Assembly (NCBI GenBank): GCA_963663895.2
Contig: CAXXRD010000002.1
Location: forward strand, 384,001 to 448,000
Length of the DNA stretch: 64,000 bases
Direction: 5' to 3'
Source: Dehalococcoidia bacterium
GTDB lineage: Bacteria; Chloroflexota; Dehalococcoidia; Bin125
The position numbers and the translations under genes were made by a program. A model generated the notes under the pieces. It did not search any database. It was not told where the DNA came from and worked only from the letters and a program-made list of their open reading frames with translations. Shown in pieces: positions 2,522 to 47,597 of this stretch (position 1 is the first letter of the stretch; the number at the start of each line of letters is the position of its first letter).

Positions 2522-3343
2522 TCACACAGGAGTGGCTTGCCGCCACATCGACTCGATGTCGCCTTCTATCTGGCGGAATTCATCCGTCGGGAGCATCCGT
2601 AAGCAAGTTAAGCTCGATCCGAAATCCTTGAGAGAAGCATCGACGTGGTACACCGCACCATCGACGAAGAGGAGGCGGAGGTGAGGGAGTTCGCTCCCGA
2701 TGCGGCACTCGCTATCCCCGTCCCAGCTCGCTCGCCAATCAGCCCAAGCTTCGGTTACCCCTTGACTTACCCTTGGGTGGTCCGAGCTGAGGAAGCGCCG
2801 CGAGACTCCACTGGGCGCGGCCGCCGCGAGCGTGAAGGTGTCATCGTTCGTGTATTGGTCAATGATAACGAGCGAGTCTTGGGCAGGTCCGATTAGTTGA
2901 CGCAGCCTGATGGCACCCTCGAATCGCCGTCCGGCACTGACGTAGGTCGGCCCCGGGCGAAGTTCCTCGGGCGAGAACAGTGCCTCTGGAGTCTCCGCGC
3001 TGTCCTCGCGGGTTCCGCCCAACTCGCAAGCGAGCAGCTTCAGTTCGCGGCAGCCGACAGCGGCTCGTACCAATTCCACGCGAATCTGATCGAGGGGTTC
3101 CGTTCCGCTCACAGCGGGCCACAGCACCACCTCGACCTGTCGAGGAGCTTCATGTCGGAGTTGTGCGTCGATCTGAGCGAGGAGCGTAGTCCATCGACGA
3201 TGCCAGGACGCGATTGCCTCAGCATCTCCTTCGCTGATTAGACGCAGCCCATCGCGACGAAGGTCGGCAAGGCGAGCCACCTGGCCATGCAAGCGTTCAA
3301 TCGGATGTGATGCATCGTCGAGTCGGGCACATTCACTGGCCAC
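2522..3343 (-). CDS. Hypothetical protein with C-terminal PLD-like (HxR variant) nuclease-type domain
   Basis: C-terminal half IGPAQDSLVIIDQY...HLRLLFVDGAVYHVDASLKDFG resembles the IDxY / HDRFLxxD / GASLKD family of PLD-fold domains. GTG start overlaps the upstream gene's stop by 11 nt. Confidence 0.65.
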   Translation of the reverse strand: MASECARLDDASHPIERLHGQVARLADLRRDGLRLISEGDAEAIASWHRRWTTLLAQIDAQLRHEAPRQVEVVLWPAVSGTEPLDQIRVELVRAAVGCRELKLLACELGGTREDSAETPEALFSPEELRPGPTYVSAGRRFEGAIRLRQLIGPAQDSLVIIDQYTNDDTFTLAAAAPSGVSRRFLSSDHPRVSQGVTEAWADWRASWDGDSECRIGSELPHLRLLFVDGAVYHVDASLKDFGSSLTCLRMLPTDEFRQIEGDIESMWRQATPV

Positions 3344-6300
3344 GGTGCCTTAGCCCGAATACTCTCTCGTCACGCTCCCTCGCTGCGGCGCGGTCGCGTA
3401 AGTCGCTGAACACTTGTACGCCCGCGTCGATGATCGCGCCGCGGCGTTGATCGTCCCCGCGGTCGAGTTGTGAGAAGGCATCGACTGTCTTTTGCCAGTG
3501 GTGACTCTCTTCGCCCCACCAGGAACTCTCTGAGAAGCTCGTGGTGCCGACGATCTTCTCCAGATCCCATCCGCGGTCGAGAGCGAGTAACGCCCGTTCC
3601 ATCCAATCTTCGCTCGGTCCGCGCCGCAGACATACCCACTGGAGTTCGTCGAGGTCAGCTCGATCCAGCAGCGCCTCCGCTGTGGCCAAGTCCGCCCCCA
3701 CGAGTTCCGTGACGACATCTTGGAGAGGGAAGGAGGGAGCGTCGGCGGGAATTGCATCGATCAACTCCCGCCGAACGTGAGGCGGTAACCCACCGATTTC
3801 CTCTACGAGTGTGTGCGGGAGTGACCAGTGGTCAATAGAGTCACGCTTTAGTCGCGTAAACCAAGCACGAAGCCAGTCGGCGAAGAGTTCAGGATCACTC
3901 TTGAGAATTTCTGAGTACCAGTAGTCGTCCGGTGGGCTGGCGATAATTGCCTCGCGCCAGCGAACTTGTCCTGCTTCGGAGAGGTCGGACAACTGCGTCT
4001 TCCCCGGCCCATGCGCGATCGCTACGGCTGCGTCGCGTGCAACGATCGGGTCGGAAGCATCCAACAAGCGCTCGACGGTCTCAGTGTCGACTTGACCTCC
4101 GACGACCAACCACTCAATCAAGTTCCGGTGGTCCCTACTTAGCCTCGCAATCCCTTTCGCCCTGAGTTCCTCGCCGACGGGACGCGTGAGGATCACCTGC
4201 AAGGCTACCCACGAGTAGGAATCACCCCCGAGCAACTCGGCCAGCGCAGCCTGCCATCCCTCGGCATCAATCTCGACGGACCGTTGCAGAAACGGCAGCA
4301 GCAGATCAGCGGCCGCGCGACGCCGCACCAGTACATCAGTCCAGGTAAGCGGCTCGGCATTCGACTCAGCGAGGAGTTGCGCTAGACGCGGCGTGAAGCG
4401 CGGGTATGAGATTCCGGCGGCGGTGGCCTCCAAGTCCGACCCGTGTAGAAGCTCGACTTGGTCATCGAGCGATCGCGACTTCGCATCTTTGGCCAACGCG
4501 ACGACTGCCGCATCAGCCCTCCGCTCCCAGTCGCTGTGGTCGACCTTGGTACCTGCCCAGTGCTCAGGAAAGAGGGTTTCGAATTCAGGGGGAATCTCGA
4601 CTACAAGATCGACCTTCGCACCGTACGAGCGGAGCTTTCTGAGCGCACCTGGGCGGTCGGCGAGAATGCTCGTCAGCCGCTCGATTACACGCCGCGCGAC
4701 GCCGCGAATCGCGTGAACATCGGCCTCGACTGATGCCCTGCCGAGGCCCAGCGTGCGCGGATAGACCCACGAGTGCATCTCGTCGATCAGTGGTCCGACG
4801 GGCCCGTCCTTCACCCGCGCAACGATTTCAAGGACTCGATCCCAGAGAGGGTCGAGCGCGGTCACTACTGCAGGCGGCAGAGGTGCCTCTCCGATAGTCA
4901 ACTTGTTGCCGAGCCCGGGGTCCTGAGTTATTACGCGTATCTGGGGTTGCATCGCATGCGTCAGAGCACGGATCCCGACCCCTATGTCTCCGTCCGCGCG
5001 GAGCCAACGGTCAACGGCCTCGACAGCAGCCTTTCTGACCTCGACTGGGTGGTCGGACGCCGCGATGTGATCACCAATGACTCGGAGCGGGTGATCCGGA
5101 GCGCTGTTCTCGGGACGATCGTCACCGACGGCTGCGTCCAATAGCAAAGGAAGCGTGGCGTTGGGGTCTACTTCCGCGCGGTGCGCTTCCCGGACGATTT
5201 CGTCTCGGAATTGCGGCCAAAGCTTGATGGCGTCCTGGAGTTCATTTGCCCCAAGAAGGGCAAACGCGATGGCTGACTCAGAGTCGCGGTCATCGACGAG
5301 GCTGCGTACAAACTCGCGATCGAACTCGGCGCCGCGGTGAATCGCGCCGAGCAACGGGGCCGCAGCGCTCCGATCGTCGTCCAAGTGCTGAAGCGAGGCA
5401 CGCAGGTCGAGAGACCCTGGTTTCGGCAGATAGATATCCCGTACGAGGGCGTATCGAAGATCCACCGGCTGGACGCGCAGGCGGATAACACGGCCGGCCT
5501 CCGGTGTCTCATCTAGGGTTCCGCCTGACGCAAGCCCTCGAATCAGATCCGCAACCGTGGGCTGATTGAGACCGAGCGCCTGACCGACCTGCTCAAGCGT
5601 GGCTCCGTACTTTCCGGACAGGGCAAGGAATCCGAGTACATATCGACTTTCAGCACCGATCGACCTTGCATACCAGCCAACGATGTCACGAAGGAGCACG
5701 TCTCCGGCCGCGACATCTCGCAGATCGCCCGTCAGCGACGCGTGGGCGAGCGTGACTGCGAGTCCCACGCGGCCGTGTGCCTGATTCACGAGATGGGCTT
5801 GAAGTTCGACCGGGGCCACGATCCCCATTTCCTTAATGACGTCGAGAATCTGATCACGTTCAAGTTCCCCGATCTCGAACTGCGAAGCACCCGAGAGCGC
5901 TCCAGAAACCTCGTCGACGCTTCCCGGCCAGGTCACGGCCGCGATCTTGAAGCTGGCGCTCATCTGGGACCGCAGTTGCCGGAGCCTGCTCAGCCGATCT
6001 CCCTGCAAATGAGCATCGTCAACCACGATCCTCTGCGGCTGCATGTCGCGGATGGCGTTTTCAAGCTGGCTGACATTCCAGCCATCGTCGAAGAGTCCCC
6101 AGTCATCCTCCATCAACTGCTGAAGCAGGAATGTCTTGCCGATCCCAGGCTTTCCGACGACGACGATATCGCTTTCGATGGCTTTCAGTTGCTCGAACTC
6201 TCGGTCTCTTCCGATGAGGGGAATCTCTGGCATAGGGCGACGGGTGACAGGGAGCCGAGACAGCGCGCGGGCCTCACCGGGAACTCCGAGAAGTTCTTGC

Positions 6301-6716
6301 CGCCATGCCGCGTTCCGGTAGAGCCGCCCGATGAAGTCGGCACGATCATGGACAGCGGCGAGGCGGACGCCGAATTGATCGCGCAGGAGATGGTCTAGCT
6401 TGAGTCGACGGCGTCCACTGATCGGTCTTGTGGTCGCGAACACAATCGCGCGGCGCTCACCCCCGGCATCGACATGACTATTGACGTTGCGCTCGAGATT
6501 GCCGCGCGCGTCTTCTTGGACACTGGCTACAAGGAAGAACGGGGTACCGTCAGACAGCTCTCCGATTCCGTCCATGCCTGCATCGTTCCCGCCCTCGACT
6601 GGACGGAGCGACGGGTAGTCCTCACGCAGTAGATCGACTGCACAGCGCTCGAATGTCGGGCCGTCGAGCGGTCGAGCGGTTGCGTCCCGAATCGCGAGAT
6701 ACAGGGGATCTGGCAT
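3333..6716 (-). CDS. Large REase-like + STAND-type P-loop NTPase + helical sensor protein (Avs-like putative defence protein)
   Basis: N-terminal FERCAVDLL...GGNDAGMDG (Mrr/PD-(D/E)xK-like). Walker A GKPGIGKT, Walker B IVVDDAH, wHTH-like GATLEQVGQALGLNQPTVADLIRGL, then ~650 aa of Leu/Ala/Trp-rich helical region. More AT-rich than flanks. Confidence 0.75.
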   Translation of the reverse strand: MPDPLYLAIRDATARPLDGPTFERCAVDLLREDYPSLRPVEGGNDAGMDGIGELSDGTPFFLVASVQEDARGNLERNVNSHVDAGGERRAIVFATTRPISGRRRLKLDHLLRDQFGVRLAAVHDRADFIGRLYRNAAWRQELLGVPGEARALSRLPVTRRPMPEIPLIGRDREFEQLKAIESDIVVVGKPGIGKTFLLQQLMEDDWGLFDDGWNVSQLENAIRDMQPQRIVVDDAHLQGDRLSRLRQLRSQMSASFKIAAVTWPGSVDEVSGALSGASQFEIGELERDQILDVIKEMGIVAPVELQAHLVNQAHGRVGLAVTLAHASLTGDLRDVAAGDVLLRDIVGWYARSIGAESRYVLGFLALSGKYGATLEQVGQALGLNQPTVADLIRGLASGGTLDETPEAGRVIRLRVQPVDLRYALVRDIYLPKPGSLDLRASLQHLDDDRSAAAPLLGAIHRGAEFDREFVRSLVDDRDSESAIAFALLGANELQDAIKLWPQFRDEIVREAHRAEVDPNATLPLLLDAAVGDDRPENSAPDHPLRVIGDHIAASDHPVEVRKAAVEAVDRWLRADGDIGVGIRALTHAMQPQIRVITQDPGLGNKLTIGEAPLPPAVVTALDPLWDRVLEIVARVKDGPVGPLIDEMHSWVYPRTLGLGRASVEADVHAIRGVARRVIERLTSILADRPGALRKLRSYGAKVDLVVEIPPEFETLFPEHWAGTKVDHSDWERRADAAVVALAKDAKSRSLDDQVELLHGSDLEATAAGISYPRFTPRLAQLLAESNAEPLTWTDVLVRRRAAADLLLPFLQRSVEIDAEGWQAALAELLGGDSYSWVALQVILTRPVGEELRAKGIARLSRDHRNLIEWLVVGGQVDTETVERLLDASDPIVARDAAVAIAHGPGKTQLSDLSEAGQVRWREAIIASPPDDYWYSEILKSDPELFADWLRAWFTRLKRDSIDHWSLPHTLVEEIGGLPPHVRRELIDAIPADAPSFPLQDVVTELVGADLATAEALLDRADLDELQWVCLRRGPSEDWMERALLALDRGWDLEKIVGTTSFSESSWWGEESHHWQKTVDAFSQLDRGDDQRRGAIIDAGVQVFSDLRDRAAARERDERVFGLRHRGQ

Positions 6717-7027: not shown

Positions 7028-8815
7028 TCAGCTGCCAGCGCGGGCGGCCTGAAGCTCGGCGCGGAGGGCAGCAGTCGCTCCGGCGTCGATCTCATAAGAA
7101 AGGCAGCGGCGATCCAGCTCACGCACCACCACGCCGTAGTCGGCGCGCGCACCTTCGATCGAGACGTACTCGTCGATCACATCGTTGAGTACGCGCTCCG
7201 GGTCACGTTCCAAGGGATCGCCGTAGCCGCCGCCGCCCGCGGACCAGAAGGAGAGCAGGTCCCCCACTGCGACGGGCACAAGGACCGAGAATACCGGCAG
7301 GGATTGCTCGCGCTCGGTGTCGGGATTCAGCGCCATGCCCGCCGTTCGCCCCACTCGGCCGTCGAAGACGCCGGGAGGGCCGAAGCGCTCGCGGTTGCCG
7401 AATGTGGAGAGCGTGCCCGCCACGTAGGGGAAGGTGACGAGCTGGTGAACGGCCATGCCCCCGCGCGAGCGGCCTGGTCCGCCCGAGTTCTGCAAGAGCT
7501 GGTAGCGCTGATAGAGGAGGGGGAAGCGTCTCTCCTGGAGCTCGGCGGGGACGTTGACGATCGTGGAGGCGTACGGCGATCCGACGACGTTGGCGCCGTC
7601 TTTGGCGCGCGAGCCGCCCATGCCGCCGGGCGACCAGATGTAACAGATATAGGTGGTGGCGAAGCCATCGCGCGTGTCCCAGCCGTGGTAGGTGGTGTTG
7701 AGGATCGTCGAGGCAACGCCAGCGCCGCGCGCCGGCAGCGCCGCGCTCATCGCCAGGGTGACGGCGCCGATCACCGCCTCCATGCTGCTTGCGGCGGTCG
7801 CGGAGATCGCGGACGGGGACTGCGCGTGGCAGATGGAGCCGGGCGTCGTGCGGATCGTCATCGCCCGCAGGATGCCGGCGTTCATGGGCATGGTAGGGAG
7901 GATCGATCCGACCGCGATGAAGACAGCGGAGGTCGTGGCGGCGATCGTGGAGTTGACGCCAGAGCCGGCGGCGCCGTCGCTGGCGGTCAGGTCGACGTCG
8001 GCGTGATCGCCGTCGATGGTGAGACGCAGCCGTATGGCGACCGGATCGCCGGTTGCCACGTCTTCGTCGACCCAGTCTTCCGCCTCGTAGACGCCGTCTG
8101 GAAGGGCGCGCAGATTCTCTCGCATCATGCGCTCGGACTGGTTCTGAATCTCCGCCATGCCCGCCAGGACGGCGGCGAGGCCGTGCTTCTCCGCGAGCTC
8201 GCGGATGCGCCGGTCGCCAAGCCGGACCGCAGAGGTCTGCGCGTTGAGATCGCCCATGCGTTCCCAAGACTCACGCATGTTGTGGAGCAGGAGGGCAACG
8301 ACGTCGCGGTTGAGCTCCCCCGCGCGCCAGATCGTGATCGCTGGGATGCGCACGCCTTCCTCGTAGTGGGAGCGGGCGCTGACGTTGATCGACCCAGGTG
8401 CGATGCCGCCTACGTCCGACCAGTGCGCTGTGGAGGACACGAAGGCGATGATCTGATCCTCGTAAAAAACGGGACGGACGAAGTGGATGTCATTGCAGTG
8501 GGTGCTGGCGACGTAGGGGTCGTTGATCATGTAGATGTCGTCGGGCCGCATATTGGCGACGCCGATGCTGCGCAGCACCTCGGGCACGGCCACCATGGTG
8601 ATGCCGACGAAGGCCGGGAGATCCGTCTCCCCCTGCGCCACCAAGAAGCCGTGGCGGTCGTAGATAGCCCCGGCGAAGTCCCGTCCCTCGGCCACGGCGA
8701 TGGAGTAGGCGCTCTTCGCCACGAGCAGGGCCATCTCGTTGCAGACGGCGCGCAAGCCCGTGGAGACGAGCTCATAGAGAACGGGGTCAATGGACGGGGG
8801 GAGACGCTCGTTCAT
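7028..8815 (-). CDS. Hydantoinase B / oxoprolinase family subunit (orphan paralogue 2)
   Basis: NDPYVASTHCND, STAHWSDVGG, ELQERRFP, SAGGGGYGDPLER. Confidence 0.92.
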   Translation of the reverse strand: MNERLPPSIDPVLYELVSTGLRAVCNEMALLVAKSAYSIAVAEGRDFAGAIYDRHGFLVAQGETDLPAFVGITMVAVPEVLRSIGVANMRPDDIYMINDPYVASTHCNDIHFVRPVFYEDQIIAFVSSTAHWSDVGGIAPGSINVSARSHYEEGVRIPAITIWRAGELNRDVVALLLHNMRESWERMGDLNAQTSAVRLGDRRIRELAEKHGLAAVLAGMAEIQNQSERMMRENLRALPDGVYEAEDWVDEDVATGDPVAIRLRLTIDGDHADVDLTASDGAAGSGVNSTIAATTSAVFIAVGSILPTMPMNAGILRAMTIRTTPGSICHAQSPSAISATAASSMEAVIGAVTLAMSAALPARGAGVASTILNTTYHGWDTRDGFATTYICYIWSPGGMGGSRAKDGANVVGSPYASTIVNVPAELQERRFPLLYQRYQLLQNSGGPGRSRGGMAVHQLVTFPYVAGTLSTFGNRERFGPPGVFDGRVGRTAGMALNPDTEREQSLPVFSVLVPVAVGDLLSFWSAGGGGYGDPLERDPERVLNDVIDEYVSIEGARADYGVVVRELDRRCLSYEIDAGATAALRAELQAARAGS

Positions 8816-8868: not shown

Positions 8869-9807
8869 CTATGCGAGCAGAGCGGCGACGCGGGCGACGG
8901 CGGCAGGCTGGTGCTCGGAGGCCCAGAGGGTCGAAACCGTGAGCGTGACGCCCGCCGCTTGCCACGCCTCGATCTTGTCGCGCATCTGCGAGCGCGAGCC
9001 GAAGATCCCGACATCTTCCGCCATGCGCTCACTGATGGCCGCTTCCACCGCCGTGTGGTCGCCGGCGGCGAGCGCGGCCTGCGCACGCTGCACTTCCTCC
9101 CCATAGCCAGCTTCCGTGAAGAAGGCCGTATAGTTGGGGAGCGGCATGTGGAGCGCGAGAAAGCGCCGGACGAAGGCCAGGCCTTCCTCGCGCTCCTCGT
9201 TGATCCAGATCGGCGCGATGTTGGCGAAGGTGCATTGCGCCCGCTTCGCCTCGGGAATCTCTTGCTGCAGGGCCGCGACGTGGGAGAGGGGGATGTTGGC
9301 ACCGAGGGCGCCTTCCGCGATCTCGCCGGCAAGCCGGGTCATCTTGCGCCGCAGGGCCGCAATCCATATCGGGGGAAGGGGCTGGCCGCGGGCCGCGGCC
9401 CGCAGCTGCTGAACGTAGTCGCGGACATGCCCCAAGGGCTTCTCCCAGGTGATCCCGAAGGGCTCCAGGATCGCCGCGTGGCCCGTGCCGAGGCCGAGCC
9501 GGAAGCGGCCACCGCTGACCTCATGGTTGAAGGAGGCAGCGCCCGCCAAGTCGGCGGGATGGCGCATGTAGGTGATGCTGATGCCGCTGCCGACGGTGAT
9601 CTCATTGGTGGCCTGGAGAATGGCGGAGCAGAGGCTGAGCGCGTCGTATACCTCCGAGATGGCTCCAACCCAGTCTCCCTTGGGAACCGCCCAGTCGTAG
9701 GGGCAGAGGATGTGATCGAATCCCTGACGATCGAGCTGCTGCGCGAGCTCAATGGCCGCGCGGCGCTCGCCCGGCTGAGCAGCCACCATGATGCCCGGTT
9801 TCGCCAT
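8869..9807 (-). CDS. LLM-class (F420/flavin-dependent) oxidoreductase
   Basis: SGGRFRLGLGTGH and PPIWIAAL...LAGEIAEG motifs. Start reassigned to ATG 9807 (MAKPGIM) after a GGGGAGGG RBS. Confidence 0.88.
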   Translation of the reverse strand: MAKPGIMVAAQPGERRAAIELAQQLDRQGFDHILCPYDWAVPKGDWVGAISEVYDALSLCSAILQATNEITVGSGISITYMRHPADLAGAASFNHEVSGGRFRLGLGTGHAAILEPFGITWEKPLGHVRDYVQQLRAAARGQPLPPIWIAALRRKMTRLAGEIAEGALGANIPLSHVAALQQEIPEAKRAQCTFANIAPIWINEEREEGLAFVRRFLALHMPLPNYTAFFTEAGYGEEVQRAQAALAAGDHTAVEAAISERMAEDVGIFGSRSQMRDKIEAWQAAGVTLTVSTLWASEHQPAAVARVAALLA

Positions 9808-9868
9808 CGTTGCCCTCCCCACTCTGGCCGCTACGATACTGCGCGACGCAAGCGATGGGAGGAAGGGT

Positions 9869-10726
9869 ATGCCAGCACCAGCGCCGCCCGGAGCGCGACT
9901 CCGAGCGCTCATGGATCGGGGGACGGTCGTCGCGCCGTTCGTATGGGACGGCGGACAGGCCGCGTACGCCGCCGCGGCCGGGCATGCGGCGGTCTACATG
10001 ACCGGATTCGGCACGGCGGCGGCGCACGGGGTGCCGGATATCGGGCTGCTGGGGATGGGCGAAATGGTCGCGAACGCCCGGCGGATCGCAGCGGCGGTCG
10101 ACGTGCCCGTGATCGCGGACGCGGATACCGGCTACGGCAACGCGGCCAACGTCACGCGGACCGTCGAAAGCTATGAGGCGGCGGGAGTGGCGGCGCTGCA
10201 CATTGAGGATCAGGTTTGGCCCAAGCGCTGCGGTTTCATGGCCGGCAAGGAGGTCATCCCGATCGAGGAAGCGGTGCAGAAAGTGCGGGCCGCGTGTACC
10301 GCCCGCCGCGACGGGTCGCTGGTGGTGATCGCCAGGACGGATGCGCTGGCACCGCAGGGCTGGGACGAGGTCGATCGACGGATCCACGCCTTCGCGGAGG
10401 CCGGAGCGGACCTGGTGTTCGTCGACGGGCTCAAGACACGGGATGACATCGAGCGGGTGGCGGCGATGGCGCCGGATCTGCCGCGCCTGCTGAATAGCGG
10501 GCTGTTGCAGGCGGAAGAGGCGGCAGCCTTGGGCTACCGGCTGGTGCTTGCCCTCGACACGATCCATGCCTTATTCGGCGCGATCCGCGACATCTACGAG
10601 GAGCTGGCGCGGCGCGGCCGCCTTGACGCGGCCGGGCGAGAGATGCCGGACGTGGAAGCGATCGCACGCGTCCTCGGGGTCGAGCGCTACCGAGCGGCGG
10701 AAGCGGCGGCGGAGACGGCGCGCTAG
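9869..10726 (+). CDS. Isocitrate lyase / PEP mutase superfamily lyase
   Basis: PVIADADTGYG, HIEDQVWPKRCGF, IARTDA, AGADLVF motifs. Start at ATG 9869. Confidence 0.9.
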   Translation: MPAPAPPGARLRALMDRGTVVAPFVWDGGQAAYAAAAGHAAVYMTGFGTAAAHGVPDIGLLGMGEMVANARRIAAAVDVPVIADADTGYGNAANVTRTVESYEAAGVAALHIEDQVWPKRCGFMAGKEVIPIEEAVQKVRAACTARRDGSLVVIARTDALAPQGWDEVDRRIHAFAEAGADLVFVDGLKTRDDIERVAAMAPDLPRLLNSGLLQAEEAAALGYRLVLALDTIHALFGAIRDIYEELARRGRLDAAGREMPDVEAIARVLGVERYRAAEAAAETAR

Positions 10727-11387: not shown

Positions 11388-13280
11388 CTAGCCGACGCCA
11401 GCCGATTGCCTGGAGGAGAGCCAGCGCGGCACCTGCGGCTCCGCCGGCGGATCGAGCATGGTTTCCGCTTTGCAGCGGGCCTTGAGCTCTTCGATCGATC
11501 CTCCGAAGTCGAACAACTGGGGCGCGGGGCGTTCGGCGGTGATCTTCTCCCGGAGATCGGTGGTGGCCGCCTGGTCGACGGTGCCGTCGTCGTTTATCAC
11601 GACGCCGTAGCGCTTGGCGCCCTCGACGGAGACGAGTCCGCGGGCAACGTCGGCGGCGACAAGGTCGGCGTCGCGCTGGAGGGGGTCGCCCCAACCGCCG
11701 CCGCCCCAGGTGTTGAAGTAGAGAATATCGCCTTCCTCAACCATGATGCGGTCGCACTTGGAGGGCAGGTACTCCCGGGAGCCGTCGGTGCGCACGAGCA
11801 GCTTGGTGCTGCGGCCTCCGGGAAGACCCCCGTTCACGCCCCAGGGGTAGGTGAGCCAGCGGTCGTCGTGAATGGAGATTTCGCCGGGCTCGAGGAACCG
11901 ATAGCCGATGGAGATCCCGTTCCCGCCCCGATGCAGGCCGGGGCCGCCGGAGTCGGTCACCGTCTCGTAGGTGTCGATCCGGAGAGGGAAGTAGCTTTCC
12001 AGGAACTCGTTGGGAACATTGGTGAAGGAGGGCCAGAGCGAGTGGCCATCGGGGCCGTCACCCATGGGGCGGCCGGGGATGCCCCCGAAGCCGATCTGGT
12101 AGAGCTGGTACCACTCGCCATTCCTGTCATAGCCGGAGTACATGAAATGCGGGCTGTCGGAGAAGCCGGCGGCACAGAGCAGGTCGGGGGCCCCTTGTCC
12201 GAAGAGGCCGCTGATGATGTCGAACACGCGGCCGAGGGTATGGGTGCGGCAGGAGAGCGCGCCGGGGCGCCGCGGCTTGAGCAGGGAGCCTTTGGGAATG
12301 CGTACTTCCATGAGGTCATAGAAGCCGTCGTTGAAGAGGATCTGGGGGTCGAAGACCATGATCATGAAGACGCCGCAGAACATCTTGAACATGGCCTCGC
12401 TGAGATAGAAGTTGATGGAGCCGATCGACTGCGGATCGGTCTCCGCGAAGTCGAAGATGACCTTGTCGCCCTCGCGCCACATGGCGCAGTGGAGCTTGTA
12501 AGGGCCCATGCCCAAGCCGTCGTCGCAGACGTAGTCCTCAAAGGTGCGCTTCTCTTCGGGGATCATGGTGCGGATCAGCTCCCGCATCGCGCGACGGTTG
12601 CGATCCAGCAGCTCCTCCAGCGCGGAGTAGTAGACATCGTCGCCGAAGCGCTCGGCGAGCTCGATCGTGCGCCGCCCGGCCAGGCGGCAGGCGGCGAGGA
12701 TGGCGTTGAGGTCGCTGCGGTTCCACTGTGGGAGACGGCAGTTGCGCAGGATCAGATCGAGGATGTCCTCCTGCAGCACGCCGCGCTTATAGATCTTGAC
12801 GGGCGGGATGATGACGCCCTCTTCGAAGATCTGGCGGGCGTCGGTGGGGAGACTTCCGGGCACTTTGCCGCCGACATCCGTGACGTGCCCGAACATCGCC
12901 ACCCAGCTGATCATGCGACCGTCTTTGTAGATGGGCATGAGGACCAGCCAGTCGTTGCCGTGGCTGATGGCGGCGTCGCAGCTGTAGGGATCGGAGGTGA
13001 GGAAGACGTCTCCCTCTTCGATCAGGCCGTCATAGGCCTGGAGGAAGCCGTGGATGAAGGAGCCGAACTGGCCGACGACCATCTTGCCGTCCAGGTTGGC
13101 GATCATGGGAAACTCGTCGTGCTGCTCGCGGATGCCCGGAGACATGGCGGTGCGGAAGAGCACGGCATCCATCTCAAAGCGGGCGTTGCGCAGGGCGTTC
13201 TCAATGATATCCAGGGTGACGGGATCCACCGTGACTCCCTGGAAGGGCGTTGTGTTGGTTTGCTGAATGGTGGCCGGCAT
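11388..13280 (-). CDS. hyuB: N-methylhydantoinase B / oxoprolinase beta subunit
   Basis: DPVTLDII, SDPY, HVTDVGG, GGGGWGDPL. Directly downstream of the A subunit. Confidence 0.9.
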   Translation of the reverse strand: MPATIQQTNTTPFQGVTVDPVTLDIIENALRNARFEMDAVLFRTAMSPGIREQHDEFPMIANLDGKMVVGQFGSFIHGFLQAYDGLIEEGDVFLTSDPYSCDAAISHGNDWLVLMPIYKDGRMISWVAMFGHVTDVGGKVPGSLPTDARQIFEEGVIIPPVKIYKRGVLQEDILDLILRNCRLPQWNRSDLNAILAACRLAGRRTIELAERFGDDVYYSALEELLDRNRRAMRELIRTMIPEEKRTFEDYVCDDGLGMGPYKLHCAMWREGDKVIFDFAETDPQSIGSINFYLSEAMFKMFCGVFMIMVFDPQILFNDGFYDLMEVRIPKGSLLKPRRPGALSCRTHTLGRVFDIISGLFGQGAPDLLCAAGFSDSPHFMYSGYDRNGEWYQLYQIGFGGIPGRPMGDGPDGHSLWPSFTNVPNEFLESYFPLRIDTYETVTDSGGPGLHRGGNGISIGYRFLEPGEISIHDDRWLTYPWGVNGGLPGGRSTKLLVRTDGSREYLPSKCDRIMVEEGDILYFNTWGGGGWGDPLQRDADLVAADVARGLVSVEGAKRYGVVINDDGTVDQAATTDLREKITAERPAPQLFDFGGSIEELKARCKAETMLDPPAEPQVPRWLSSRQSAGVG

Positions 13281-13291
13281 CGCTGCCCTCT

Positions 13292-15349
13292 CTAGCTCGT
13301 GTGGGGCCGGATGAGGATGTTGCCCAGCGCGTCTATCTCGCCGGTGTGGCCGGGCAGGATGAGGCTGGTGGCATCCATCTCTGTCACGATCGCGGGACCG
13401 GAGATGCGATGTCCCGCGCGCAGGGCGGCACGGTCGTAGATGGTGGCTTGACGCTGCTCTTGGTCCACGTAGATCGCTTGGGTACCGATGGCGGCGGCGG
13501 CCGGATCGGAGCCGCTGGTTCCCAGCGTCTCCGCAGCGAGGGTGGTGGCTTGACCATGCACGACCGCGCGCAGATTCACCACCTCTCGATCGGCGTCGAG
13601 GGCGAAGGTGAAGAGCTGCGTGTGGATCTGGTCGAACTGGGCGCCAGCGGCTTCGAGGCCGCCACTGGTGAAGCCGTCGAGCGCCACGTCGACGGTGAGG
13701 AGCAGGCCTTGGCCGTGGTAGCGGAGATCGATCTGACAGGTGGTGGTCTGGTCGGATCGGGGAACGCCCTCGGCGTCGAGCGCCGCAGCAGCGGTTTCCT
13801 GCAGCTCCTTGAGGATGCCCCCCACTTCGGCGGAGCTGGTCTCGGGGAAGCGCCGAATGAACGTGCGGGAGGCCTCGTTGCGCAAGCGGGTCGTGGCGTC
13901 GCCATAGGCACAGAGCACGCCCGGCCCGGGCGGAATGATCACCGGCCAGGAATTCATGAGGCGGCCGAGTGCGTTGGCATGCATGGGTCCAGCGCCGCCG
14001 AAGGCGACGAGGGCGAAGTCGCGGGGGTCGTAGCCTTGTTCGACGGATACGAGGCGGAGAGCGCCGAACATATTCTCGTTGACGATATCGATGATGCCGG
14101 CCGCAGCACGCTCCAGAGAGAGGTCGAGAGCGTCCGCGACGGTCTGGACGGCGGCGGCGGCCTTGGCGCGATCGATGGCAAGCTCCCCGCCGAGACGGGC
14201 AGAGGCAGGGAGGTAACCGAGCACGACGTTGGCGTCGGTGACGGTGGGGCTGGTTCCGCCCTTGTTGTAGGCGGCGGGACCAGGGTCGGCGCCAGCGCTC
14301 TGGGGCCCCACCCGCAGGGCCTTGGTGAGCTCGGGAACGTGGGCGATGGAGCCGCCTCCCGCCCCAACGGTGCGCACGTCCAGGGACGAGGCGCGCACGG
14401 TCACGTCGCCGACGGTAGTCTCGCGGCGGGTACGGGCGCGGCCGTCTTGCACGAGGCAGACATCGGTGGAAGTGCCGCCCATGTCGAAGGTAAGCAGATT
14501 GCGGTAACCGGCCTGCTGGGCGATCCAGATGGCGCCAGCGACCCCACCGGCCGGCCCACTCATGAGCAGGTTGACGGGCGTGGCGCGAGCGGCTTCGGCG
14601 GAGGCAAGCCCCCCGTCGGAGCGGAGCAGGTGGAGGTTGTGGTCGCCCAAGCGGTCGCGAAGATCGCCTTGCAGCGCCGTCACGTAACCGGCGACGACGG
14701 GACGGACGTACGAGTTGGCGACGGTGGTAATGGTGCGCTCGTACTCCTGCATCTCCGGGATCACTTCGGAGGAGAGGGAAACGGGCACGCCGGGCATCTC
14801 CTCTTCGGCGATCGCCTGAACGCGACGCTCATGCCGACCGTCGGCGTAAGCATTGACCAGAGAGACGGTAAGCGCCTCGACGCCACGCGCTTTGAGCTGA
14901 CGAAGCTTGGCGCGGAGGTCGTCCTCGTCCAAGGGCTCGACGACATCGCCGCGGGCGCTGAGGCGCTCCTTCGCTTCGATCGTCAACTCGAGCGGAGCCA
15001 GCGGCGCACTCTTGTTGTAGATCACCCAGGCGCCGAGACCGCCGGGGACGAAGGAGCGGGCCACTTGCAGCACCTGTCCGTAACCCTGTGTGGTTACGAG
15101 GCCGACGCGGGCGCCACTGCCGGTGAGGATGGCGTTGGTCGCGACGGTGGTGCCGTGCATGACTTGGCCGATTGCCCGTGGCGCGATGCCGGCTTGCTGG
15201 CAAACTTTCTCCAACCCTTGTAGGACGCCAGCGGAGAGGTCCGCGGGAGTGGAGGGAACCTTCGCGATGTGCCGGGCACCGCTGTCTTCGTCAATGAGAA
15301 GAAGGTCCGTGAAGGTTCCACCCACGTCGACACCGACTCGGAAGGCCAT
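13292..15349 (-). CDS. hyuA: N-methylhydantoinase A / oxoprolinase alpha subunit (ATP-binding)
   Basis: GVDVGGTFTD, HGTTVATN, SGPAGG, DMGGTSTD, GAGGGSIA, FGGAGPMH motifs. Confidence 0.93.
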   Translation of the reverse strand: MAFRVGVDVGGTFTDLLLIDEDSGARHIAKVPSTPADLSAGVLQGLEKVCQQAGIAPRAIGQVMHGTTVATNAILTGSGARVGLVTTQGYGQVLQVARSFVPGGLGAWVIYNKSAPLAPLELTIEAKERLSARGDVVEPLDEDDLRAKLRQLKARGVEALTVSLVNAYADGRHERRVQAIAEEEMPGVPVSLSSEVIPEMQEYERTITTVANSYVRPVVAGYVTALQGDLRDRLGDHNLHLLRSDGGLASAEAARATPVNLLMSGPAGGVAGAIWIAQQAGYRNLLTFDMGGTSTDVCLVQDGRARTRRETTVGDVTVRASSLDVRTVGAGGGSIAHVPELTKALRVGPQSAGADPGPAAYNKGGTSPTVTDANVVLGYLPASARLGGELAIDRAKAAAAVQTVADALDLSLERAAAGIIDIVNENMFGALRLVSVEQGYDPRDFALVAFGGAGPMHANALGRLMNSWPVIIPPGPGVLCAYGDATTRLRNEASRTFIRRFPETSSAEVGGILKELQETAAAALDAEGVPRSDQTTTCQIDLRYHGQGLLLTVDVALDGFTSGGLEAAGAQFDQIHTQLFTFALDADREVVNLRAVVHGQATTLAAETLGTSGSDPAAAAIGTQAIYVDQEQRQATIYDRAALRAGHRISGPAIVTEMDATSLILPGHTGEIDALGNILIRPHTS

Positions 15350-20084: not shown

Positions 20085-21191
20085 ATGGAGCTCGGCTACT
20101 TTGCGATGCCGCTGCATCCGCCGGAGGCGGATTTCGGCCAGACGATCCGGCACGACATGGATCAGATCGTGCTGCTGGACCGGCTGGGCTATGCGGAGGC
20201 CTGGATCGGGGAGCACTTCACGAGCGCGTGGGAGAACATCCCGGCGCCGGAGCTGTTCATCGCGGAGGCCCTGGCGCGGACGGAGCAGATCAAGTTGGGG
20301 ACGGGGGTGACCTGCCTGCCGAACCACAACCCGTTCCATATCGCACACCGGATCGCGCAGCTGGATCACCAAGCGCGAGGACGCTTCCGCTGGGGGATCG
20401 GTTCGGGAGCGACGCCGCTGGACTTCGACGTGTTCGGAGTCGACGACGAGGAGGGCGAGCACCGGCCCCTGACGCTGGAGACGCTGGAGATGGTGCTGAA
20501 GATCTGGGACGGGCTGCCCCCGGGGACCTACGCGAACAAGTTCTGGCGCTTCACGATGCCGGAGCCGATGGAAGAGCTGGGGTTCTGGGTGCACCTGAAG
20601 CCGTACCAGCAGCCGCACCCGCCAATCGCCGTGGCGGGGCTGACGCTGGGATCGGAGACGCTGAAGCTGGCAGGCGAGCGGGGCTGGATTCCGATGAGCA
20701 TCAATTACGTGCCGCCCTGGGTGCTGAAGACGCACTGGGAGGCCGTGGAAGAGGGCGCAGCACGGGGCGGACGGACGGTGAGCCGGGCGGACTGGCGAAT
20801 CGCGCGGGAGGTGTTTGTGGCGCCGACGTCGGAGGAGGCGCGGGCGGAGGCGGTGCAGGGAACGCTGGCGCGGGACTTCCTGGGCTACTTCCGGCCGATC
20901 TTGGCGAAGTACGGTTTTTTGGAGATCGTGAAGCACGATCCGGCGATGGCGGATGACGAGGTGACGGCGGAGTACATGGTGGATTCGCGGTACTTGGTGG
21001 GGAGTCCGGAGGAGGTCGCCGGGCGGATCCGGAAGCTGTACGACGAAGTGGGCGGGTTCGGGGTGCTGCTGGCAATGGCGCACGAGTGGGAGCCCCGGGA
21101 GAAATGGGAGCGGTCGATGCGGCTGCTGGCCGAAGAGGTGATGCCGATGGTGGCGGATTTGGCGCCGGAGCCGCTGGCGGCGCCTTCGTAA
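20085..21191 (+). CDS. LLM-class flavin-dependent monooxygenase
   Basis: FAMPLHPP, WIGEHF, IKLGTGV, AQLDH, KPYQQPHPPIAVAG. Start ATG 20085. Confidence 0.92.
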   Translation: MELGYFAMPLHPPEADFGQTIRHDMDQIVLLDRLGYAEAWIGEHFTSAWENIPAPELFIAEALARTEQIKLGTGVTCLPNHNPFHIAHRIAQLDHQARGRFRWGIGSGATPLDFDVFGVDDEEGEHRPLTLETLEMVLKIWDGLPPGTYANKFWRFTMPEPMEELGFWVHLKPYQQPHPPIAVAGLTLGSETLKLAGERGWIPMSINYVPPWVLKTHWEAVEEGAARGGRTVSRADWRIAREVFVAPTSEEARAEAVQGTLARDFLGYFRPILAKYGFLEIVKHDPAMADDEVTAEYMVDSRYLVGSPEEVAGRIRKLYDEVGGFGVLLAMAHEWEPREKWERSMRLLAEEVMPMVADLAPEPLAAPS

Positions 21192-22978: not shown

Positions 22979-25035
<2,057 letters not shown>

Positions 25036-25039
<4 letters not shown>

Positions 25040-46550: not shown

Positions 46551-47597
46551 CTACGTGGACCGATCGGGGGTTTCGGCGTAGGCATCGACGACGGCTTCGG
46601 TTACATACTGTCCGAGGCCGGGAAGTGCCCCGACGATATCGAGCTGGTCGTAGCAGAGGTAGGTACAGGACTTGGCCAGGAGCCCGAAGGCGGGCCGGGC
46701 CAACTCTTTAAAGACCTTATCTCGGCGCTCAGCTGGGGCCACGATGTGCGATTTGATCGTCATGTTCGGCTGGAGCGTTCGCAGGTCCAGCATGCGAAGC
46801 AGCCCCGAGTAGACGGCGGTTGTGTGCTCCACTTCGAACGCCCGCACGATGGAGTTCCCTTGCAGCCAAAGGACATCGATATTCTCGACCGTGTGGATGG
46901 TCTTCGCATCGTAGTTCAGCGGCAGTCGTTCGCGATCGAGAAACTGCGTATCCTCACCCGCCAGCAAAGGGCGGACGTGTTCCCGGTCTGCCTTGGCGAC
47001 CCACACATCCAGCCCTAGCTTGACACCCAGTCGAGCGAGCTTTGCTTGCACGTCGTGGGATGTGCGCGCCGCCGGCAGGGGATCTACAGCGACCGGGGGC
47101 TTTTGATTCACGAGGGCCCGCACGCGTGCCGCTGCATCGGTGAGCTGGGGGGTATAGAGAGCCTGCCACCCATTCAATGAGGCGAGTAACTCACTGTCCA
47201 CCGCGGTGCGTGGAATATCTTGCGCGACCCAGCGCACGGCCCGCGTGTGCGGCAAGGGATCAGGGCTGTCGACTCCAGAAAAAGCATAGTCCCCGGTCAC
47301 CTCTGCGACGCACAGCACCGGGCGGCGGACGAGCGGCACGATCACCCAATCGCCCCGTGTGAGCTCTTTCACAAAGCGCCAGAGCGCGCCTGCGGCCAGT
47401 CGTGTGGCCATTGCCTTTGGTGGGTGGCGGAGTTGGCTGTGGTAGTCAAAGAGCCGATCCCTCAGGGATTCGTAAGAATCGAAGGTACTGAGATCTTCGC
47501 GGAACCCATAGCTGATGCCGATCAAGTTCTGATCGAGGAAGAGCGCCGCATACTCCCCGCCTTTTCCGGAGCGGTTCACCCACAGCGTCACGGGCAC
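46551..47597 (-). CDS. Putative modification-dependent restriction endonuclease: EVE/PUA-like N-domain + PD-(D/E)xK-like C-domain
   Basis: N-terminal WVNRSG...RFVKELTRGDWVIVP...EVTGDY...RAVRW (as in Mrr-associated restriction proteins). C-terminal IDVLWL...AFEVEHTT...SGLLRMLDL. More AT-rich than flanks. Confidence 0.7.
   Translation of the reverse strand: MPVTLWVNRSGKGGEYAALFLDQNLIGISYGFREDLSTFDSYESLRDRLFDYHSQLRHPPKAMATRLAAGALWRFVKELTRGDWVIVPLVRRPVLCVAEVTGDYAFSGVDSPDPLPHTRAVRWVAQDIPRTAVDSELLASLNGWQALYTPQLTDAAARVRALVNQKPPVAVDPLPAARTSHDVQAKLARLGVKLGLDVWVAKADREHVRPLLAGEDTQFLDRERLPLNYDAKTIHTVENIDVLWLQGNSIVRAFEVEHTTAVYSGLLRMLDLRTLQPNMTIKSHIVAPAERRDKVFKELARPAFGLLAKSCTYLCYDQLDIVGALPGLGQYVTEAVVDAYAETPDRST

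Follow-up and report, generated by a model that had tools for sequence, protein, structure and literature searches.

The DNA analysed here, referred to below as the window, is a 64,000-nt stretch of contig CAXXRD010000002.1 from a Dehalococcoidia bacterium. It contains a pair of minus-strand genes that a preliminary description, made from the DNA letters and a list of open reading frames (ORFs), had taken for a candidate two-gene anti-phage system, in which an antiviral STAND (Avs)-like nucleoside triphosphatase (NTPase) is coupled to a phospholipase D (PLD)-like protein. Gene 1 (3333..6716) encodes a protein of 1127 aa (P0001), which is predicted from its translation, AlphaFold2 (AF2) model and Foldseek matches to be an Avs-like STAND NTPase, and gene 2 (2522..3343) encodes a protein of 273 aa (P0002), for which an AF2 model was also obtained. 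The ORF list and the translations confirmed that the two genes are co-oriented and overlap by 11 nt (GTGGCCAGTGA): the GTG start codon of gene 2 lies inside the end of gene 1 and overlaps its TGA stop codon, and an AAGG sequence is found 4 nt 5' of that GTG. In the public gene call, gene 2 is represented by a shorter, 202 aa form (P0003). The first 71 residues of the 273-aa frame are kept in homologues of 271–275 aa, with L25, G32, W47, W51 and P67 invariant, and, because of this conservation, the 273-aa frame is regarded as the real one.

The AF2 model of gene 1, built on 44 homologues (predicted local distance difference test (pLDDT) score, 88.9), consists of four parts: an alpha/beta N-terminal domain (residues 1–145), a P-loop domain, a helical domain followed by a winged helix, and 690 residues of helical repeats. 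Based on motifs, on structural comparison by VIA and on Pfam, the predicted NTPase core with the helical domain and winged helix occupies 5427..6221 (minus strand, residues ~166–430). The P-loop motifs reported earlier were found in place, Walker A (GKPGIGKT) at residue 188 and Walker B (IVVDDAH) at residue 230, and a GRVGLAV motif was located at residue 315. The winged helix at about residues 357–415 and the long helical C-terminus, both of which had been proposed from the sequence, are borne out by the model, where residues 438–1120 are all-helical with high pLDDT and are interrupted by a single beta-hairpin (592–612). This C-terminal region (3336..5405, minus strand, residues 438–1127), delimited by the AF2 secondary structure, is a putative sensor; no Pfam family matches it, and its best score in the ESM Atlas, 0.82, is at chance level and uninformative. 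Gene 1 has the STAND core of Avs/AVAST proteins (P-loop nucleotide-binding domain, helical domain and winged helix), and its predicted structure also has the large C-terminal repeat (tetratricopeptide repeat (TPR)-like) sensor region of these proteins.

Foldseek analysis placed Avs4 (8dgf; E-value, 3 × 10−10) and Avs3 (8dgc; E-value, 7 × 10−8) at the top of the structural matches of gene 1, followed by SAMD9, a STAND-TPR protein, CED-4, Apaf-1, plant NRCs and Avs5, and the Avs-like architecture that had been read from the sequence is thereby supported at the level of predicted structure. VIA comparison of residues 158–481 gave the match to NRC4 (Z-score, 12.6; root-mean-square deviation (rmsd), 6.0; 268 residues aligned), with WRR4A, CED-4 and NLRP3 also among the matches, and the general AAA+ proteins RuvB, Cdc6 and RFC scored nearly as high as the nucleotide-binding leucine-rich repeat receptors (NLRs). 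Pfam matches to P0001 were restricted to sub-threshold P-loop families at Walker A (AAA_22, AAA_16, nSTAND3 and NACHT), and sub-threshold matches among the 44 family members were to AAA_16 (41 members), nSTAND3 (36) and NACHT (25). The weak PADLOC matches of P0001 at E-values of up to 1 were Aga_REase, PDC-S27, mad8 and PDC-S73, and this list is complete. A profile search of the Protein Data Bank (PDB) retrieved Walker A neighbours only, such as Clp. Gene 1, as modelled, is Avs-like in architecture and stands outside the Avs types modelled in PADLOC.

For the N-terminal domain of gene 1 (6282..6716, minus strand, residues 1–145), three lines of evidence weakly favour an Mrr-like domain, that is, one of restriction-endonuclease fold. 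The PADLOC model Aga_REase (Argonaute-associated restriction endonuclease) matches residues 21–130 (E-value, 9 × 10−4), Mrr_cat is matched below threshold by 11 of 44 gene-1 family members (best E-value, 0.0016), and the language-model features of this region score 0.95 to Mrr_cat clusters in the ESM Atlas. A profile of 36 gene-1 N-terminal domains found nothing below an E-value of 0.1 among PDB sequences. When 36 diverse N-termini were aligned, D45 and D49 proved common to every sequence, and at least 90% of the rows have E23, T65, N73 and T95. The beta-3 strand reads LVATT and, therefore, there is no lysine at the (D/E/Q)xK position, in any of the 36 aligned sequences. The claim of a restriction-endonuclease-like segment is thus weakly supported: the Mrr-like signals, all of them weak, agree with it, whereas the catalytic lysine is absent.

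The AF2 model of gene 2 (pLDDT 86.6; 33 homologues were found) shows three long helices (3017..3304, minus strand, residues 14–109), a disordered linker and an alpha/beta domain (2525..2959, minus strand, residues 129–273). The three-helix domain, delimited by the AF2 model and a hidden Markov model (HMM), is clade-specific. The preliminary description had gene 2 ending in a PLD-like domain, and the structural comparisons agree: the PLD fold was matched with a Foldseek probability of 1.00, and VIA analysis of residues 129–273 gave Z-scores of 13–14, namely 14.2 for FAM83A (rmsd, 2.8; 142 residues aligned), 13.4 for NucT, and 13.1 both for Nuc (1byr; rmsd, 2.9; 140 out of 152 residues aligned) and for the PLD domain of SauUSI. 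Further fold matches were Zucchini (4ggk; Z-score, 11.6), TrmB, TrmBL2 and F13. It is, on the model, strongly supported that the C-terminal part of gene 2 adopts a PLD fold. The motif of this domain, H221-L-R223-x4-D228-x6-D-A-S237-L-K239-D240, keeps the HKD spacing and occurs once per chain; compared with the canonical HxK(x)4D(x)6GSxN, it retains the His and Asp and substitutes Arg for Lys and Lys for Asn. No Pfam family was matched by P0002 at E-values of up to 1, including PLDc/PLDc_2 and RhuM, and no NCBIfam family was matched either.

A profile search with gene 2 among 1.84 billion representatives retrieved 614 proteins at E-values of 10−3 or lower. Nearly all of them match the PLD-fold domain only, which is C-terminal in proteins of 160–556 aa with varied N-termini; a few matches are full-length or N-terminal, the rest cover only about positions 80–273 of gene 2, and two weak longer spans were seen (P0231 and P0277). 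Among 138 aligned family members, the His of the motif is kept in 136, the Arg in 136, the Asp in 133, the Ser in 135 and the Lys in 127, which is the level of conservation expected of a catalytic or ligand-binding site. Where P0002 has Leu at position 222, most members of the wider family have Asp. PLDc_2 was matched at E-values of 10−3 or lower by 12 of 51 sampled distant relatives (two of these above the gathering score), and RhuM-N, ORF6N/Rha, DUF2321 and NYN are among the N-termini of the 51. All 51 also match two PADLOC models of PDC-S05 through the PLD-fold domain. In P0002, residues 129–255 align with positions 156–277 of the 285 of PDC-S05 model PDLC04879 (E-value, 1.3 × 10−11), and the second model is matched over its positions 177–287 of 306; P0002 does not match the whole PDC-S05 model, with its RhuM-like N-terminal part. 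According to the available part of a preprint, PDC-S05 is listed as a single-gene candidate, and E. coli was protected from T7, T5 and T4 by one representative, which may or may not have the PLD-fold module; the plating of T7 and T5 fell about 1000-fold. No complete PADLOC system model matches the two genes, but gene 2 is not altogether without a name, its PLD-fold domain matching two models of an already named candidate.

The distribution of the two genes was followed in 60 gene-1 loci from genome contigs and in five more from a genome search. Gene 2 was found in 9 of these 60 + 5 loci (intact in six, decayed in three), all of which belong to one subclade. When the gene-2 HMM was run on six-frame ORFs of all loci, ten were matched, the window included, and gene 2 was always directly downstream of gene 1; it is intact in seven (the window, L014, L015, L018, L020, L024 and L026) and decayed in three (L016, L017 and L019). 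An HMM of the N-terminal helical part alone matches only ORFs directly downstream of gene-1 homologues. The spacing between the genes is −11 nt in four loci, −4 nt in two and +9 nt in one. Pairwise identities of the two proteins correlate (r = 0.97; 21 non-independent pairs from seven loci), and gene 2 diverges faster than gene 1 in these loci. The exclusive position of gene 2, the spacing and this correlation support inheritance of the pair as one unit. In a FastTree phylogeny of 51 full-length gene-1 proteins, all of the gene-2 loci are found in one 13-row clade (support, 100), of which three members, L021, L022 and L025, have no gene 2. Pairing is, thus, not a hallmark of the gene-1 family as a whole, and, where the preliminary description made its case depend on co-occurrence of the homologues, this holds in one direction: gene 2 occurs only beside gene 1, whereas most gene-1 loci have no conserved partner.

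Gene 1 itself is widespread but patchy. Its homologues (115 in the protein collection) come from at least 10 phyla, and it is clearly present in 5 of 400 genomes of the phylum, compared with 0 of 400 other phylum genomes for gene 2; the only further genome from its family that was searched gave no gene-1 match. No match was obtained by tblastn for P0001 in the plasmid and phage collections or for P0002 in the plasmid collection. Since gene 2 is absent or decayed beside intact copies of gene 1, gene 1 does not need gene 2. Gene 1 is probably the autonomous core, and gene 2 depends on it, having been gained once or twice and sometimes lost.

The pair forms the AT-richer islet that had been noticed from two 60-nt lines, the G + C counts of which (32 at position 3841 and 44 at position 20761) proved exact: its G–C content is 61.6%, compared with a mean of 67.1% for the window (standard deviation, 1.8% for segments of 4195 nt). 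The 4195-nt segment starting at 2501 has the third lowest G–C content among 240, with the minimum at start 2251. The G–C content at third codon positions (GC3) is 0.64 and 0.67 in the two genes; of six neighbours measured, five have values of 0.81–0.89 and one, an isochorismatase-like ORF, has 0.71. The low G–C content and GC3 of the pair indicate that it was acquired horizontally. Around the pair, neither notable direct or inverted repeats nor promoter-like sites were found, and terminator-like sites are not in excess there (three, compared with a mean of 2.7 after shuffling). In a comparison with one genome of the same family, the best hydantoinase B was only 34% identical, and an empty site could not be demonstrated in this way.

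As had been described, the surroundings are catabolic, with a Hydantoinase_B gene on both sides, followed by luciferase-like, isochorismatase and hydantoinase A genes. Four hydantoinase genes occur within 15 kb (607–2394 on the plus strand, and 7028–8815, 11388–13280 and 13292–15349 on the minus strand), of which three are Hydantoinase_B paralogues and one is a hydantoinase A gene, and the gene pair lies between two of the B paralogues.

For defence genes near gene 1, the two nearest genes on each side were scanned at 39 loci (140 proteins; six further eligible loci were left out for size). Thirteen of the 39 have a PADLOC match at an E-value of 10−25 or lower within two genes. Type III restriction–modification (R-M) genes adjoin the gene-1 homologue in L015 and L024, type II R-M genes in L049 and L050, and the other defence neighbours are Shedu SduA (L046), NsnA (L034), RmrA (L039) and PDC-M05A/B (L030). 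The defence context of gene-1 loci is suggestive only, the rate of such neighbours not being significantly above that among the window's own genes. In L026, which derives from a Dehalococcoidia metagenome-assembled genome (MAG), a CBASS cyclase (E-value, 7 × 10−108) and a 2TM effector (E-value, 3 × 10−60) are encoded directly upstream of the intact pair (4147–5613, plus strand). In the window itself, a 348-aa ORF with a GC3 of 0.73 (46551–47597, minus strand) matches PDC-S02 in its N-terminal half (E-value, 6 × 10−32) and a type II restriction endonuclease in its C-terminal half (E-value, 1 × 10−16), and may be a second, unrelated defence candidate. A 686-aa ORF (22979–25039, plus strand) matches the DpdF and PsyrT helicase models (E-value, 2 × 10−171) and is, from the pattern of its matches, taken for a RecQ-type helicase, from which it follows that PADLOC models also catch housekeeping genes.

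Gene 2 is not the only kind of gene found next to gene-1 homologues. In a second clade of gene 1 (five loci, three of them from Acidobacteriota MAGs), a homologous upstream ORF ends −14 to +4 nt from the start of gene 1 (L032 550–1353, L043 5184–5963, L045 5161–5970, L048 5318–5965 and L065 5118–6005, all on the plus strand). An AbiEii match was obtained for the four scanned ORFs of this clade, that is, for all but the one in L048 (E-values, 1 × 10−7 to 3 × 10−11), suggesting that an AbiEii-like nucleotidyltransferase gene is an alternative partner of gene 1. In L005, a 501-aa ORF (4854–6356, plus strand) with no Pfam or PADLOC match and no relationship to gene 2 overlaps the end of gene 1 by 10 nt and may be a further kind of partner; a partner shared by L005 and L059 was considered and rejected, as the 501-aa and 502-aa downstream genes are unrelated to each other. 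In L028, a gene of metallo-beta-lactamase (MBL) fold (9573–10478, plus strand; Lactamase_B; E-value, 1 × 10−21) lies 242 nt downstream of gene 1, which recalls Avs-MBL pairs. In the sister lineage of the gene-2 clade, an 82-aa ORF of L002 (4880–5128, plus strand) shares 14 nt with the end of gene 1; its likeness to the helical domain of gene 2 is weak (hhalign probability, 35%; E-value, 4 × 10−4), and it was not counted as a copy of gene 2.

Binding between the two proteins was addressed by complex prediction with residues 438–1127 of gene 1 and the whole of gene 2, the C-terminal half of gene 1 having been chosen because its clade-specific conserved positions are slightly enriched at 881–1000. 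The score obtained was 0.34 (runs of 0.34, 0.00 and 0.50), compared with 0.00 for the best of three controls; in the calibration, 58 out of 80 solved complexes passed the mark, as did 2 out of 110 mismatched pairs, and those passing with scores of 0.60 or lower comprised no more than 7 of the 80 complexes but both of the mismatches. The runs agree in at least 0% of their contacts, and the pLDDT of the partner is at least 73. The prediction gives weak support to binding of gene 2 to gene 1. Recruitment or activation of the PLD-like protein by the sensor, as put forward in the preliminary description, remains a proposal, weakly supported by this prediction.

Taken together, we consider it about an even chance (probability of roughly 0.5) that the pair is a horizontally acquired anti-phage module, in which an Avs-like receptor is joined by an accessory effector of PLD fold that is peculiar to one lineage. 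As in Avs3 and Avs4, the helical C-terminal region of gene 1 would bind a phage-derived trigger, and binding would lead to ATP-dependent oligomerisation of the NTPase core. Gene 2, which is translationally coupled to gene 1, would dock on it through the three-helix domain, as this coupling and the exclusive co-occurrence suggest, and the effector would be its PLD-fold domain, with phosphodiesterase or nuclease activity. In the single-motif PLD proteins Nuc and Zucchini, the active site is built across a dimer. Since it needs a dimer there, oligomerisation of gene 1 could activate gene 2: the receptor would bring two copies of gene 2 together and the PLD active site would be switched on by proximity.

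Several observations weigh against this module. Regarding the receptor, no PADLOC Avs model matches P0001 (hmmscan against PADLOC-DB 2.0.0, E-values of up to 1), the NCBIfam search of gene 1 gave no match, and the absence of the canonical lysine from all 36 aligned Mrr-like N-termini leaves the family's own effector chemistry unexplained. Regarding the enzyme, the PLD motif of gene 2 departs from the canonical form (HxR for HxK and SxK for SxN), and FAM83, TrmB and TrmBL2, which are among its closest folds, are not known to be catalytic. Regarding the link between them, one of the three complex runs scored 0.00 and the prediction covered the C-terminal 690 residues of gene 1 only; there is no fusion of the two genes among the best 150 of the 614 library matches (longest, 556 aa), and none came up in a search for longer proteins, which is weak evidence. 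Most gene-1 homologues have no gene 2, and gene 2 has decayed in 3 of 10 loci beside an intact gene 1. Regarding defence, the pair lies in this genome among catabolic genes and outside any defence island, and the enrichment of defence neighbours by which the proposal was to be checked is not significant at either threshold: 18 of 140 neighbours compared with 3 of 56 window genes at E-values of 10−25 or lower (Fisher p = 0.096), and 28 of 140 compared with 10 of 56 at 10−6 or lower (p = 0.45), the 56 genes of the window being a small, single-genome baseline.

The solitary and decayed loci suit a different explanation, according to which gene 1 is a self-sufficient Avs-like system and gene 2 an independent, PDC-S05-like defence gene or toxin that hitch-hikes beside it, with no physical or regulatory link. 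The occurrence of the PLD-fold domain in hundreds of small proteins with varied N-termini points the same way, as does the listing of PDC-S05 as a single-gene candidate with, in the available part of the preprint, one member protective alone. On the other hand, gene 2 with its N-terminal domain was never found away from gene 1, that domain is clade-specific, start–stop overlaps of 11 or 4 nt are conserved, and the complex prediction, weak as it is, scored above the best control. Such an independent gene 2 is, thus, considered unlikely.

On another reading, gene 2 is no killer at all. As a regulator or co-sensor, it would bind a phosphate-bearing ligand or a nucleic-acid end in its PLD pocket, and restrain or help to trigger gene 1. 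This would agree with the ligand- or DNA-binding TrmB and TrmBL2 and the pseudo-enzyme FAM83 among the top Foldseek matches, with the departure from the canonical HKD motif, and with the clade-specific conserved positions in the sensor region of gene 1 (881–1000). Yet the His, Arg, Asp, Ser and Lys are almost invariant in 138 members, as in a catalytic site, 12 of 51 relatives match PLDc_2, and varied N-terminal fusions such as those of this family are typical of effector domains. A regulatory role therefore appears quite improbable. Lastly, a role unconnected with phages is very unlikely; the pair would then be a regulator of the STAND type, or would serve DNA maintenance or a mobile element, together with a phosphodiesterase. 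In favour of such a role, STAND clades that do not act in defence are numerous (PMC13581612, from the part of that survey available), the local context is catabolic, the enrichment of defence neighbours is not significant, and the plasmids and phages searched yielded no homologue. Against it, the best structural matches of gene 1 are Avs4 and Avs3, its N-terminus is Mrr-like, its phyletic spread is patchy and its composition foreign, several homologues have R-M, CBASS and Shedu genes around them, and the partner modules (PLD-fold and AbiEii-like) are of kinds typical of conflict systems.

A bolder form of the proposed receptor–effector module, to which we give only a small chance, would cover the whole gene-1 family. 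Its members would be adaptor-type Avs proteins, in which the Mrr-like domain, devoid of nuclease chemistry, serves as a scaffold, and killing would be left to enzymes that act in trans and can replace one another. One clade would use the single-motif PLD-fold protein, turned on by forced dimerisation on the oligomerised receptor, and another the AbiEii-like nucleotidyltransferase. If true, this would parallel, in bacteria, the recruitment of caspase-9 by Apaf-1, and would provide the first mechanism for the HxR...SxKD branch of PLD proteins that underlies some PDC-S05 candidates.

In bacteria, the counterparts of NLRs are the STAND receptors, and, to our knowledge, the transfer of the signal from receptor to effector is understood in a few families only. 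If the module proposed here is real, a separate, dimerisation-dependent effector gene would link receptor oligomerisation directly to catalysis. The interest of the locus lies in the coupled PLD-fold partner, in the uncharacterised HxR...SxKD family to which it belongs (HxR...GASxKD in full; 614 representatives, spread through candidate defence genes), and in the lysine-less Mrr-like domain of the entire gene-1 family.

In comparison with known systems, gene 1 most resembles Avs4 and Avs3 (8dgf and 8dgc), with which it shares a predicted N-terminal domain of nuclease fold, a STAND NTPase with a winged helix, and a large helical C-terminus. The N-terminal domain of Avs4 is Mrr-like. Gene 1 differs from both in that no sequence-level match was detected (PADLOC Avs models and PDB profile search), in that it is shorter (1127 aa compared with chains of 1534–2028 residues), in the missing (D/E/Q)xK lysine of its N-terminal domain, and in the coupled PLD-fold gene of one subclade. 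Gene 2 has the same fold as Nuc, NucT, Zucchini and the PLD domain of SauUSI, with His and Asp (H221 and D228) at HKD spacing. Unlike Nuc, NucT and Zucchini, it has Arg for the motif Lys and Lys for Asn (HxR...SxKD), and its activity is predicted only. PLD-superfamily proteins also stand beside a large NTPase in the defence systems DISARM (DrmC) and Mokosh (MkoB). The partner NTPases in these two systems are, however, helicases and not STAND proteins, and no DrmC or MkoB model was among the PADLOC matches of P0002 (E-values of up to 1), nor was such a component found in the flanking genes. PDC-S05, the RhuM-like single-gene candidate, shares the C-terminal PLD-fold domain with P0002, which, in contrast, lacks the RhuM N-terminal part and has a clade-specific helical domain and coupling to a STAND gene instead.

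The nearest precedent for an effector encoded by a separate gene of an Avs system, as proposed for gene 2, is Avs2-trypsin-MBL. According to the available part of its description (bioRxiv 10.64898/2026.08.25.746987), the partner gene is the effector there, and is switched on after the STAND protein has oligomerised on a phage protein; the partner is an MBL-fold nuclease activated with a fused trypsin domain. In the window, by contrast, the partner is a PLD-fold protein with a helical N-terminal domain of its own and no protease. A 2026 survey, as far as its available part shows, puts the Avs families at 90 or more and the STAND clades associated with defence at 198 (PMC13581612). No pair of a STAND and a PLD-fold gene was found in the literature compared, which did not extend to the supplementary tables of that survey, where the gene-1 clade may be listed. 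The earlier proposal of a new Avs-like variant is, thus, best divided: the combination of STAND and PLD-fold genes was not found described, whereas an Avs system with a separate effector is already in print, so far as the accessible part of that report goes. The sensor is one more Avs-like family, and its separate PLD-fold partner is of a kind not found described with such a sensor. The gain would be incremental for the sensor, many Avs families having been described, and larger for the partner enzyme.

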